Assembly: GCA_944324115.1 (NCBI GenBank) | Contig: CALUVB010000010.1 | Span: 11,002-75,001 of the forward strand | Length of the DNA: 64,000 nucleotides | Source: an uncultured Elusimicrobiales bacterium | GTDB taxonomy: Bacteria > Elusimicrobiota > Elusimicrobia > Elusimicrobiales > Elusimicrobiaceae | Direction of reading: 5' to 3' | Part shown: piece after piece, positions 6,064-13,991 of the stretch | How positions within the stretch are numbered: position 1 is the stretch's first letter | Layout: each line of letters begins with the position of its first letter | Notes under the pieces: model-generated | Database searches by the model: none | Told to the model about the DNA's origin: nothing | The model's input: only the letters and a program-made list of their open reading frames with translations | Program-made: the position numbers and the translations under genes

Positions 6064-6092
6064 TTGACAATTATCTTTTTTTATGCTAAATT
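6064..6092 (+). promoter_or_regulatory. Sigma70 promoter of groESL
   Basis: TTGACA (6064-6069), 17-bp spacer, extended -10 TGc-TAAATT (6087-6092). Confidence 0.8.
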
Positions 6093-6117
6093 AGCATTAA
6101 TCCCGCTGGAGTGCTAG
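6091..6117 (+). promoter_or_regulatory. CIRCE element (HrcA operator)
   Basis: TTAGCATTA-N9-GAGTGCTAG versus consensus TTAGCACTC-N9-GAGTGCTAA, directly upstream of groES. Confidence 0.85.
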
Positions 6118-6164
6118 TTTAATATCCGGCGGAAACAATTCTAAAAACTAAGGAGTGGGTGAAT

Positions 6165-11471: not shown

Positions 11472-12665
11472 ATGAATTTTGACAGCATTAAAAAAGTGCA
11501 AGATGTAGATTTGAAAAATAAAAAAGTATTGGTGCGCGTGGACTACAACGTGCCCCTTAAAGACGGAAAAGTGGACAACAACAAACGTATCGTCGCTACC
11601 GAAAAAACCATCAAACATCTGCTGGATAACAACTGCCGCATCGTTTTGATGGCTCACTTGGGCCGCCCCAAAGGCAAAGTAGCGCCGGAATTTAGCTTGG
11701 CTCCGGTGGCGGAAGAAGTGCAGAGAGTGTTCGGCGTGCCCGTGCACTTTGCCAAAGACTGCGTCGGCCCGGAAGCTGACAAAGTAGTGGAAAGCGCCAA
11801 AAACGGCGAAATCGTACTCTTGGAAAATCTGCGCTTCCACCCCGAAGAAGAAAAGAATGACCCCGAATTTGCCAAACAGCTGGCCAAACATGGAGAAGTG
11901 TTTGTGCAGGAAGCGTTCGGCACCGTGCACCGCGCCCACGCCTCTACCAGCGCCATTGCGCAGTATTTGCCGGGCTCTATGGGCTTCTTGGTGCAGAAAG
12001 AAGTGGAATTTTTGGGCAAAGCGCTCAATAATCCGGCCCGCCCGTTTGCAGCTGTCATCGGCGGGGCAAAAGTGTCCGACAAAATCATGCTGCTCAATAA
12101 TTTGCTGGACAAAGTCAATGTGCTTATCATCGGCGGCGGTATGGCCTATACTTTCCTGAAAGCCAAAGGCATGGAAGTGGGCAAATCGCTGTTAGATGAG
12201 AGCAAAATTGAAGAAGCCAAACAGGTGATGGCAAAAGCCGAAGCCAAAGGCGTCAAAATGCTGATGCCGGTGGATTTCCGCTTGGCTAAGGAATTCTCCG
12301 AAACCGCAGAAGCCGTCGTGTCTGATACCATTCCCGCAGACATGGAAGGTATGGATATCGGTCCGAAAACTGAAAAATTGTTTGCAGATGAATTGCTCAA
12401 ATGCAAAACGATTTTCTGGAACGGCCCCATGGGCGTGTTTGAATTCCCCAATTTCGCCGCAGGCAGCTACGCCATCGCCAACGCGATGATTGAAGCCACC
12501 AAAAATGGCGCCATTTCCATCATCGGCGGCGGAGACAGCGTCAACGTGCTCAAAAAAGGTAAAATTGACCAGAAGGCGTTTTCGCACGTTTCCACGGGCG
12601 GCGGCGCCAGTATGGAATTTGTGGAAGGCAAAGAATTGCCCGGACTCGTTGCTTTGACGAAATAA
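11472..12665 (+). CDS. pgk: Phosphoglycerate kinase
   Basis: VRVDYNVP, HLGRP, ENLRF, GGAKVSDK, STGGGAS motifs. The ATG at 11472 follows aggaagaaggggtga. Confidence 0.99.
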   Translation: MNFDSIKKVQDVDLKNKKVLVRVDYNVPLKDGKVDNNKRIVATEKTIKHLLDNNCRIVLMAHLGRPKGKVAPEFSLAPVAEEVQRVFGVPVHFAKDCVGPEADKVVESAKNGEIVLLENLRFHPEEEKNDPEFAKQLAKHGEVFVQEAFGTVHRAHASTSAIAQYLPGSMGFLVQKEVEFLGKALNNPARPFAAVIGGAKVSDKIMLLNNLLDKVNVLIIGGGMAYTFLKAKGMEVGKSLLDESKIEEAKQVMAKAEAKGVKMLMPVDFRLAKEFSETAEAVVSDTIPADMEGMDIGPKTEKLFADELLKCKTIFWNGPMGVFEFPNFAAGSYAIANAMIEATKNGAISIIGGGDSVNVLKKGKIDQKAFSHVSTGGGASMEFVEGKELPGLVALTK

Positions 12666-12998
12666 ATCCGACACAAACAAATCCCTCCGCGTAAGCGGGG
12701 GGATTTTTATTTCATACGGGCAAAGAATTGCCCGGACTCGTTGCTTTGACGAAATAAATCCGACACAAACAAATCCCTCCGCGTAAGCGGGGGATTTTTA
12801 TTTCATACGGGCAAAGAATTGCCCGGTTTGGTCGCTTTGACCAAATAAGGCAAATCTTTGGGCTTACCCCTAATATAACACAAACCGGGCCCTGTTGTTG
12901 GGGCCCGGTCTATTTTTGTCCAAAGAATTGCCCGGGTTTTGCCACTTGGACCAAACAACCCTGACACAAACAAATCCCTCCGTTTATTAAGAGGGATT
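12627..12998 (+). repeat. Four successive copies of the pgk 3' end plus terminator
   Basis: The core CAAAGAATTGCCCGG recurs at 12629, 12721, 12812 and 12921. Units 1 and 2 (92 and 91 bp) differ by one G; units 3 and 4 are diverged. Each unit carries a hairpin. Confidence 0.95.
12679..12708 (+). terminator. pgk terminator (first copy)
   Basis: AAATCCCTCCGC-gtaa-GCGGGGGGATTTTT. Confidence 0.8.
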
Positions 12999-13033
12999 AG
13001 CTAAACAAAAACTGTTCACAAAAACTATTTATG

Positions 13034-13579
13034 CTATTGAATTCTGCAATAATATGATTTTCCATTTTCATGATCAATAAATTGAGAACTTGAGCATATG
13101 GCGGCACAAATTGTTTTTGCTTGGGCATTCCGGGCTACACAAGCATAGCCCCCAACATAAGAATAATAAATATAATAATCCGTCACCTCATTCCCGTTGC
13201 TGTTTCGGGAAGCGACAATCTCAAATCCTTCTTGTCCATCTCCGATATTATGCACATCATAAGTGAAGTTAGAGAGCACCATTTTTCCGCCATCATTTAT
13301 TTCACCATTTAACTGCAAATCCAACAGAGTTAAATCTGTCGTAGCTATGCCGTTAGACATCTGATAAACTTTCTCTGCAGTTACCAAGGCGCGCAAATTA
13401 GTTACAGCCTCCACTGCACGGGCCCGTTCCACCGCTTTAGTATATTGCGGCAGGCCAATGGCGGCTAATATGCCGATGATTAGCACCACCACCAAAAGCT
13501 CAACAAGCGTAAAACCGCCTAAACGGCGTTTTCCGAGTTTTATTACGTCGGAGATGTTTTTTTGACACATGTTATCCAT
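13034..13579 (-). CDS. Type IV pilin, PilE-like
   Basis: Class III signal G|FTLVE, hydrophobic helix LLVVVLIIGILAAIGLP, QYTKAVERAR, C-terminal Cys residues. Start placed at ATG 13579; ATG 13570 is an alternative. Confidence 0.92.
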   Translation of the reverse strand: MDNMCQKNISDVIKLGKRRLGGFTLVELLVVVLIIGILAAIGLPQYTKAVERARAVEAVTNLRALVTAEKVYQMSNGIATTDLTLLDLQLNGEINDGGKMVLSNFTYDVHNIGDGQEGFEIVASRNSNGNEVTDYYIYYSYVGGYACVARNAQAKTICAAICSSSQFIDHENGKSYYCRIQ

Positions 13580-13585
13580 ATGCAA

Positions 13586-13613
13586 AATTTATCAAAAAAA
13601 AAAAATGAGTCAA
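13586..13613 (-). promoter_or_regulatory. Candidate pilin promoter with a T12 tract in the spacer
   Basis: Minus strand TTGACT (13613-13608), 16-nt spacer ca-T12-ga, TAAATT (13591-13586). Confidence 0.65.
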
Positions 13614-13694
13614 GGCCATTCCATTGCGTGCACATTCATCTGACAAAATTTGTATAATAAATATGTTACTTTTACAGGAGAGATAGATAATTGT

Positions 13695-13991
13695 ATGCAA
13701 ACGCTTCTTCTTATTATTCATTATTTTGCGTGTGTCCTTTTGATTTTACTCGTCTTATTGCAAAGCGGCAAAGGATCCGCCGCCGGCATTTTTGGTGCTT
13801 CGGGCGCGGATAATATTTTTGCCAGTCCTACCGCTTTCAATGCCGTGAATAAATTGACGGCCGCCTTGGCTGTATTACTTTTTATAACTTCCGTTTTATT
13901 GACGATATCTTATAACAGCAAGGCTTCGTCTTCTGTATTAGACAAAGTTAATCTTCCTGTCCAGACGGCTCCAGCCACCCCGGACAAATAA
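13695..13991 (+). CDS. secG: Preprotein translocase subunit SecG
   Basis: LILLVLLQSGKG...G.FG and LNKLT-like second TM helix. RBS caggag. Confidence 0.93.
   Translation: MQTLLLIIHYFACVLLILLVLLQSGKGSAAGIFGASGADNIFASPTAFNAVNKLTAALAVLLFITSVLLTISYNSKASSSVLDKVNLPVQTAPATPDK

Follow-up and report, generated by a model that had tools for sequence, protein, structure and literature searches.

The window analysed here, a stretch of 64,000 nucleotides from the genome of an uncultured Elusimicrobiales bacterium (contig CALUVB010000010.1, positions 11,002 to 75,001), carries on its minus strand a type IV pilin-like gene whose promoter contains an uninterrupted run of twelve T residues (T12). We propose that this promoter is one copy of a conserved cassette of the Elusimicrobiaceae, which is probably T12-spaced, leaderless and selected for its length, and which would drive a large family of pilin-like genes. 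The proposal is based on the anatomy of the site, the copy number of the cassette, its conservation, the covariation inside it, and the polymorphism between strains and species. From this material we infer the transcription start site, a dependence of expression on tract length, and a role for the palindrome lying over the start region.

A multicopy promoter cassette with a predicted leaderless start

The minus-strand layout given in a preliminary description of this DNA, TTGACT-ca-T12-ga-TAAATT-ttgcat-ATG upstream of the type IV pilin-like gene, matches the sequence base for base. The -35-like hexamer TTGACT (13608..13613), preceded by a conserved ggcC context, is separated by 16 nt from TAAATT, and a promoter scan independently calls TTGACT/16/TAAATT with TG before the second hexamer. 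The homopolymer (13594..13605, minus strand) supplies 12 of the 16 spacer nucleotides, a position in which the tract length can alter the promoter geometry. Its final T together with GA forms the TGn of an extended -10 element, TGA-TAAATT (13586..13594), and its last three T plus G read TTTG. The site has the parts of a sigma-70-type extended -10 promoter, namely TTGnnn, a spacer within 16-18 nt, TAnnnT, and TG one base 5′ of the -10. The -10 hexamer is identical to that of the groESL promoter in the window (TTGACA-17 nt-TAAATT), and there is no Shine-Dalgarno (SD) sequence before the ATG (13577..13579) because only 6 nt separate it from the -10 and leave no room for one; the preliminary description was right on both counts.

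The gene itself (13034..13579, minus strand) encodes 181 residues with matches to PF07963 (N_methyl; 29.4 bits, cut-off 21.2) and TIGR02532 (25.7 bits, cut-off 16.3) and a weak match to Pilin_GH. Its N-terminus has the prepilin cleavage and methylation signature G|F-x-x-x-E ahead of a hydrophobic helix. A leader of 22 residues, MDNMCQKNISDVIKLGKRRLGG, ends in the G that precedes FTLVEL, and the mature protein would begin with FTLVELLVVVLIIGILAAIG. The N-terminus is similar to PilA and GspG. Against the named pilin equivalogs (PilA, GspG, ComGC), no match runs the full length: the similarity is confined to the N-terminal 40-75 residues with scores far under the cut-offs, and the globular domain is family-specific. 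The genome also encodes an intact prepilin peptidase (PF01478, 85.9 bits) in an open frame of 264 residues.

The genome (named G000; 1.53 Mb in 25 contigs, 47% GC, with the window at C10:11002-75001) contains 47 A/T runs of exactly 12, together with 5, 3, and 2 runs of length 9, 10, and 11, respectively, an excess well above random expectation. All but two of the 47 sit in pilin promoters, within about 60 copies of one cassette whose consensus is cTTGnnn-N2-T12-GA-TAnATT-N6-ATG. The context shared by the T12 runs reads cTTG(ACTCA/CATTG/...)-T12-GATAAATTTTG-nnnATGnn-CAAAATTTATC-AAAAAA. TTG is invariant over the roughly 60 paralogous cassettes, and the five nucleotides that follow it are variable (ACTCA, CATTG, ACTTG, ACGTA, and others). 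There are 84 pilin-like open reading frames (ORFs) in the genome, about 60 of them with the cassette. A survey of the pilin paralogs for the same layout, as the preliminary description had suggested, identified a T-tract promoter before 63 pilin-like genes, with T12 in 45 of the 63 and a 16-nt spacer in 44; about 30% of the cassette copies have a spacer other than 16 nt. In most copies the G of GFTLIEL is 69 nt away from the -10, so that the leader peptide is fixed at about 21-22 residues, and a second class of copies has a distance of 125-138 nt. Cassette-free pilin paralogs show a classical AGGAG site, and their GFTLIEL follows a short MKK leader.

The cassettes also share an orientation. 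Without exception, the 56 pilin genes that bear the cassette run in the direction of the locally G-rich (presumed leading) strand, compared with 372 of 678 ORFs of at least 300 residues and 23 of 28 non-cassette pilins. A similar arrangement was observed in the relative G033, in which the cassette matches on contig C1 all lie on one strand and those on C2 all on the other.

A TANNNT hexamer whose first T precedes the start codon by about 12 nt, in the absence of an SD, has been used as an in silico signature of leaderless genes (Zheng et al. 2011, PMC3160421). At the site, the first T of TAAATT lies at -12 and no SD is present. Of the cassettes, 48 have 6 nt between the -10 and the ATG, and a further 7 have 5 or 7 nt. 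This start codon, which in the cassette lies in the loop of a palindrome, is in frame with GFTLIEL, with no stops, in 53 of 55 copies, and most copies have no alternative in-frame SD-led start. The same geometry extends beyond the pilins. In a set of about 1,290 non-pilin ORFs, 100 have a gap of 6 nt between TAnnnT and the first ATG, compared with about 25-30 for the neighbouring gaps, and the remaining non-pilin genes show an SD peak at gaps of 5-8. The consensus of these 100 promoters is aAATTTGnTAnAAT-N6-ATG, with TGn in 52% and almost no -35 signal, and the TGA-TAAATT of the site fits this leaderless-promoter consensus of the genome (aAATTTGnTAnAAT / TTTGnTAnAAT). The comparative geometry (about 60 cassettes, 53/55 in frame, and the non-pilin peak at 6 nt) strongly supports the earlier claim that the pilin is translated from a leaderless mRNA. 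The pilin mRNA is very likely leaderless, with the A of the ATG (13579) at the expected +1, and leaderless translation seems to be routine in this Elusimicrobiaceae genome. Over background, some 70 non-pilin genes carry TGnTAnAAT exactly 6 nt before the ATG and no SD.

In the proposed mechanism, RNA polymerase with the housekeeping sigma factor would recognise the -35-like TTGnnn and the extended -10 TTTG-A-TAAATT, and the 16-nt spacer, almost all of it T12, would set the spacing between the two. Transcription would begin 7 nt past the -10, with the A of the ATG as first base, and yield a leaderless mRNA translated without an SD into a prepilin, from which prepilin peptidase would cut off the 22-residue leader. 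The T12 would be a fixed architectural element that provides the spacing, contributes its last bases to the extended -10, and, in the canonical copies, places its proximal half in the palindrome. This canonical palindrome, AT-rich and 17-18 bp long, would cover the -10, the start site, and the first codons. Since a homopolymer slips, off-length alleles would recur, would be expected to alter the output, and would mostly be purged, with some persisting and some accompanying gene decay.

Two other promoter classes were considered and rejected by eye on the cassette alignment: a sigma-54 promoter, as there is no GG at -24, and a sigma-28 promoter, as there is no TAAA-N15-GCCGATAA. A literature search returned no paper on Elusimicrobium pilin promoters and no description of the cassette. 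An assembly artefact as the cause of the number 12 was also rejected, as T13, T14, T17, T18, and T35 are present as well and independent assemblies and pipelines give T12. The two T12 runs outside pilin cassettes, at C10:84897 and C3:111508, are possible internal controls for homopolymer read error, and one of them precedes a possible leaderless start, TATAGT-tgaat-ATG. Many contigs start or stop about 100-350 nt from a cassette, and the repeat therefore fragments the assembly. Very long T/A runs (35, 19, and 15) lie at contig ends beside cassettes (C13:99-133, C16:85216-85347); these may be expanded tracts or assembly breakpoints.

Tract length across species, paralogs and samples

Relatives were searched for the cassette with a pattern allowing a variable gap. 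In at least 11 species of the genus, A12 is clearly the commonest tract length in the cassette, beside minority lengths from 8 to 15 and a few interrupted tracts. Cassette-positive species are G000, G010, G011, G017, G018, G031, G033, G038, G041, G042, and G046. The more specific pattern TTGACT-N2-T12-G occurs in two genera of the family; it was found in no genome of the order's other families and in none of the reversed-pattern controls. Genus members without the GATAAATTTTG palindrome still have 27-84 pilins and still have T-tract promoters with a 16-nt spacer. The spacing is kept although the sequence downstream differs. The promoter of G034, for instance, is TTGACT-TTG-T11-GC-TAATTT, where the -10 lies under another palindrome and the start is led by an SD; that of G002 is TTGTCT-TG-T12-GA-TACACT, with an SD; and one copy in G040 reads TTGACT-TA-T12-GC-TACGAT, two other copies there having an unclear -10. 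In G034, a sister species (loci L018, L015, L023, L027, and L034), the palindrome is longer (GCTACTTTTTAATAAA...TTTATTAAAAAGTAGC), and an SD and a short MENKILGG leader are observed.

The orthologous site, divergent from secG, has a T-tract pilin promoter in nine species, with T12 in five of the nine (G000, G033, G010, G049, and G009) and an intact gene in each of the five. The gene is also intact behind T11 in G047 and T10 in G017. Two off-length orthologs have decayed: G046 has T11 and a start codon changed from ATG to ATT, and G042 has T5, a lost -35, and a frameshifted gene. Two further metagenome assemblies with identical SecG and pilin have T12 at the site (3/3 samples with G000), and a third metagenome contig with this locus breaks inside the tract. 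The preliminary description had pointed out that one extra T would bring the spacer to 17 nt. As a goal for the tract, this length does not hold up, the conserved state being 16 nt (44/63 copies, with the relatives alike).

Gene integrity follows the same length. Within G000, broken genes are found at 0 of 39 assessable copies with a 16-nt spacer and at 4 of the 18 others (hypergeometric p of about 0.008, or 0.03 if ATG loss is left out, calculated by hand); the four comprise two frameshifted genes, a truncated one, and one in which the ATG is gone. At the same time the tract varies over short distances. Its length differs between samples with 100% identical pilins at four of six loci, three of the four having been picked for being off-length in this genome, an ascertainment bias. 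The pairs found behind identical pilins are T14 versus T13, T13 versus T12, and TTGACTC-T11 (twice) versus TTGACTCG-T12, and one pilin identical across five samples has T12, T12, a T12 equivalent, T11, and T11. The two invariant loci in these comparisons are the present site (T12 in 3/3) and a T6 copy. Near-identical paralog pairs differ in tract length in three of seven cases. A generic cassette scan of metagenome contigs matched nine low-coverage human-gut contigs, of which five have T12, two have T11, and one or two have T9; a scan aimed at this locus alone had 0 matches among metagenome contigs, and exact-protein look-ups for two pilins found nothing on record. T16 and T17 were rejected as cases of slippage, since they arise by substitutions with the TTG-to-ATG distance kept at 34. 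Collectively, the comparisons show a tract that slips at an appreciable rate and that selection pulls back to, and holds at, a length of 12.

The preliminary description held that this pilin is switched stochastically. The part of this claim that stands is that the tract lies in the spacer and that lengths are polymorphic at other loci; switching itself is not established, as the locus has T12 in three assemblies and five species, and this particular locus looks stable. A phase-variation switch is plausible, with the balance of the evidence inclining the other way. Each pilin promoter would then be a contingency locus, turned ON and OFF reversibly or tuned as a rheostat by slipped-strand mispairing, with a combinatorial mix of pilins as the outcome and with second-order selection for mutability upholding the purity of the homopolymer. 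The tract does lie in the spacer, where its length must matter, and it is kept pure over two genera, with interruptions rare, although an interruption would stabilise the spacing. Most of the off-length copies, about 30% of all, still belong to intact genes, and this fits reversible switching; off-length copies are nevertheless enriched in dead genes, which suggests one-way loss instead. The strong mode at T12 everywhere is also unlike classical contingency loci, in which ON and OFF lengths are both common, and the differences among samples at four of six loci carry the selection bias given above. Moreover, MutS is intact in the genome, and no mutator background is therefore expected. As a large surface-protein family, the pilins resemble what is reported of Mycoplasma vlp. 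A parallel is also offered by the T-tract of Helicobacter pylori sabA (PMC4081817).

A broader form of this idea, which we consider unlikely, is a combinatorial surface variation of the Elusimicrobiaceae with no described counterpart, in which about 50-60 leaderless pilin genes per 1.5-Mb genome would each be gated by a slippage-prone T12 spacer, share the palindrome, and be co-oriented with replication. If true, replication-linked slippage would produce cells that continuously differ in the pilins they display, and the system would be the first of contingency type in the phylum and the largest homopolymer-gated promoter family known.

The palindrome over the start region

Most copies of the cassette carry a covarying palindrome over the start region that takes in half of the T12. 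In the canonical copies, GATAAATTTTG and CAAAATTTATC are inverted repeats that lie 8 nt apart, the interval including the ATG, and the A6 run after the 3′ arm is mirrored by six proximal T of the tract. The positions of these T6/A6 flanks are paired in 33-39 of 39 distinct copies, and in 34-40 of 40 in a second count. Canonical copies fold as an 18-bp stem with -14.8 kcal/mol as DNA and a z score of -6.6. The copy in the window (13557..13593, minus strand) is degenerate: the 5′ arm GATAAATTTTG (13593-13583) and the 8-nt loop with the ATG (13582-13575) are followed by the 3′ arm TAACATGTGTC (13574-13564) and an A7 run (13563-13557), and the fold has decayed to -6.4 kcal/mol with a z score of -0.75.

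Covariation was identified in the stem. Seventeen paired positions show compensatory changes, with 96% of the cells paired, compared with 44-62% when the partner is slid, and the compensatory cells number 19 versus 4.1 +/- 1.6 in shuffles, none of 500 shuffles being as high. Position 5, for example, is A:T in 24 copies, C:G in 10, G:C in 2, and T:A in 1, with 3 mismatches. A compensatory change alters the leader peptide from I to M, and the palindrome is retained in three non-coding copies, where the SD and ATG come after it. Because the leader changes and the non-coding copies keep the palindrome, it is a nucleic-acid element and not a protein constraint. With transcription starting at the ATG, only the 3′ arm would be transcribed, and a role at the DNA level is therefore favoured. 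Most likely, the palindrome is a family-wide control element that acts like an operator or by forming a structure. T-tract promoters without it also exist and keep T11-T12 (C1:82956, C12:50161, and C1:136360 in this genome; G002, G049, and G009 among the relatives), so that tract and palindrome are separable modules. The conserved leader start MNKIYQK is dictated by the DNA palindrome. An intrinsic terminator was rejected as an identity for the element, as the T run comes before the hairpin and the A run after it, which is the wrong order on both strands.

The separability of the two modules bears on another explanation, in which the T run would serve the AT-rich palindrome T6-GATAAATTTTG-N8-CAAAATTTATC-A6, either as an operator for a family-wide dimeric regulator or as a supercoil-sensitive cruciform, and slippage would be noise. 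We find this rather unlikely. The covarying positions and the 18-bp stem kept in non-coding copies are what it would predict, as is the different palindrome of G034 at the same place relative to the -10, and the CIRCE inverted repeat of groESL, over the -10 and start region, is analogous. However, the palindrome-free promoters show that conservation of the tract does not depend on the palindrome, no more than 6-7 of the 12 T can pair, and the window copy has kept its T12 with the palindrome decayed. Covariation is also unexpected for one protein binding both half-sites and may be a mutational by-product, and no regulator was identified, no systematic search for one having been made.

The cassette might also be a portable homology or recombinase site (11-8-11) through which promoters and gene bodies are exchanged, with T12 a mere passenger of concerted evolution. 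One 185-aa pilin, identical in both, has GATACAT/TTGAATTG in G000 (C16:85216) and GATAAAT/TTGCATTG in L005, in the 5′ arm and -35, respectively. Because the same pilin has another -35 and 5′ arm in L005, the promoter half has been replaced through recombination, the breakpoint lying near the ATG. An identical 180-aa pilin with four unrelated upstream flanks points in the same direction, and the co-orientation of 56/56 genes would be expected if inverted copies within a replichore were selected against. Nevertheless, homologous recombination among about 60 near-identical 55-bp cassettes and the conserved N-terminal coding region would suffice for such exchange, concerted evolution fails to explain the T12 conserved where the remainder of the cassette is missing, and no recombinase is linked to the cassettes, which together make this explanation improbable. 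The 180-aa pilin (G000 C11:14459 and L010-L013) is 100% identical in five samples, with unrelated sequence 5′ of the cassette in four, and reflects either extreme constraint (a major pilin?) or movement between lineages.

It is very improbable that the mRNA is not leaderless but starts in or before the T tract and presents the AUG in the loop of an RNA hairpin for SD-independent initiation or regulation: the arms do covary as an RNA stem would, and departures from A in the 3′ flank are nearly always G, which permits sense-strand G:U pairs, but these A-to-G changes are also ordinary coding transitions, the flanks diverge completely 5′ of TTG and hold no conserved promoter, the only conserved promoter elements put the start at the ATG, about 70 unrelated palindrome-free genes share the -10-N6-ATG geometry, and an Rfam search of the cassette region gave no match.

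Several points weigh against the reading of the site as a length-selected, leaderless promoter cassette. The position of the start is derived from geometry, and the effect of tract length on promoter output is likewise one that we infer. That 16 nt and not 17 (T13) is conserved is puzzling, since groESL uses 17 and the few housekeeping promoters that carry a TTG prefer 17 (8/100 have it at that spacing, 3/100 at 16). The TTG might be an activator site instead of a -35. Several of the +/-1 differences between samples come from assemblies at 1.4-8x, to which homopolymer errors could contribute. In addition, with the start at the ATG, the covariation requires an explanation at the DNA level, such as operator symmetry, a cruciform, or templated quasi-palindrome correction, and the last of these could be its source without any function. 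As for the 16-nt state, either it is optimal in the extended -10 context, or a sub-maximal output is selected, or the TTG is no simple -35.

Known systems, implications and neighbouring features

The closest analogue is the Mycoplasma hyorhinis vlp family, in which, as Yogev and colleagues in 1991 and Citti and Wise in 1995 are said to have described, the 5′ region of the promoters is conserved and an A tract separates the -35 from the -10. Both are surface multigene families with a conserved 5′ region at each gene, an A/T homopolymer in the spacer, and one expressing length. The present family differs from vlp in that a length of 12 is found in about 70-80% of copies over two genera, in the presence of MutS, in the predicted leaderless mRNA, in the covarying palindrome over the -10 and start, and in having about 60 copies versus 7.

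At H. pylori sabA, a promoter-proximal T-tract acts as a rheostat, and its length was proposed to tune RNA polymerase binding via DNA geometry (Aberg et al. 2014, PMC4081817). The shared features are a T homopolymer in the promoter of an adhesin-type surface protein and the reuse of the device at several genes. The sabA tract, however, is located beside the -35 on its upstream side and varies greatly both among strains and inside a strain, whereas the tract described here forms the spacer and is conserved in length. In Neisseria meningitidis porA and opc, Bordetella fim, and Haemophilus hif, repeats lie between or beside the -35 and -10, and slippage alters transcription. These cases resemble the cassette in having a simple repeat at that position in a gene for a surface structure, with slippage acting on the spacing. 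They differ in being single or few genes with G/C or dinucleotide repeats and documented ON/OFF populations, whereas the present case is a 60-member T12 family read from sequence.

Leaderless genes are described from Actinobacteria, Deinococcus, and other groups (PMC3160421; Cortes et al. 2013, PMC3898074; de Groot et al. 2014, PMC4007540). Their TANNNT with the first T about 12 nt 5′ of the start, lack of an SD, AUG start, and strong TG where the -35 is weak are all like those of the cassette; the homopolymer spacer, the palindrome, the secreted-protein family with cleaved leaders, and the Elusimicrobiota host are different. The text of PMC3160421 does not mention Elusimicrobiota.

The CIRCE/HrcA arrangement at groESL is similar in that an inverted repeat covers the -10 and start region of a TTGACx/TAAATT promoter. 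The cassette differs from it in its sequence (GATAAATTTTG-N8-CAAAATTTATC), longer effective arms, and covariation between copies. Judged by their predicted features, what distinguishes these promoters from the known systems are one length near-fixed over two genera, a mismatch-repair-proficient host, a leaderless start, a palindrome, copy number, and co-orientation.

Pilin-like genes take up about 5% of the tiny genome of gut Elusimicrobia, and the cassette would give them a concrete, testable control module that is conserved over two genera and combines a -35 and an extended -10, with T12 between them as spacer, with an AUG start on a leaderless mRNA and a covarying palindrome. The leaderless translation predicted for about 70 other genes would concern a little-studied phylum. 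A mutationally fragile homopolymer kept at exactly 12 in about 60 places through long evolution is a sharp puzzle: either the T tract is functionally required or mutability is selected. The perfect co-orientation of cassette genes with replication represents a second constraint.

The divergent neighbour of the pilin gene is secG (region 13629..13991, coding sequence 13695-13991, plus strand; PF03840), which has its own SD and, in the promoter scan, a promoter-like site TGCACA-18-TATAAT at 13629-13658 (plus strand). The pilin gene between pgk-tail modules and secG (window 12627-13700, loci L048-L075) is present in some species of the genus. In the species without it, which are many, pgk-tail-like repeats directly adjoin the secG promoter. 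Downstream of the pilin stop codon, a terminator-like hairpin with a 9-pair stem followed by a T-rich tail is found at 12973..12998 (minus strand). The groESL promoter, TTGACA-17-TAAATT, lies upstream of groES and groEL at 6064-6120 of the window (plus strand) and is followed by a CIRCE-like inverted repeat, TTAGCATTA-N9-GAGTGCTAG, at about 6087-6118.

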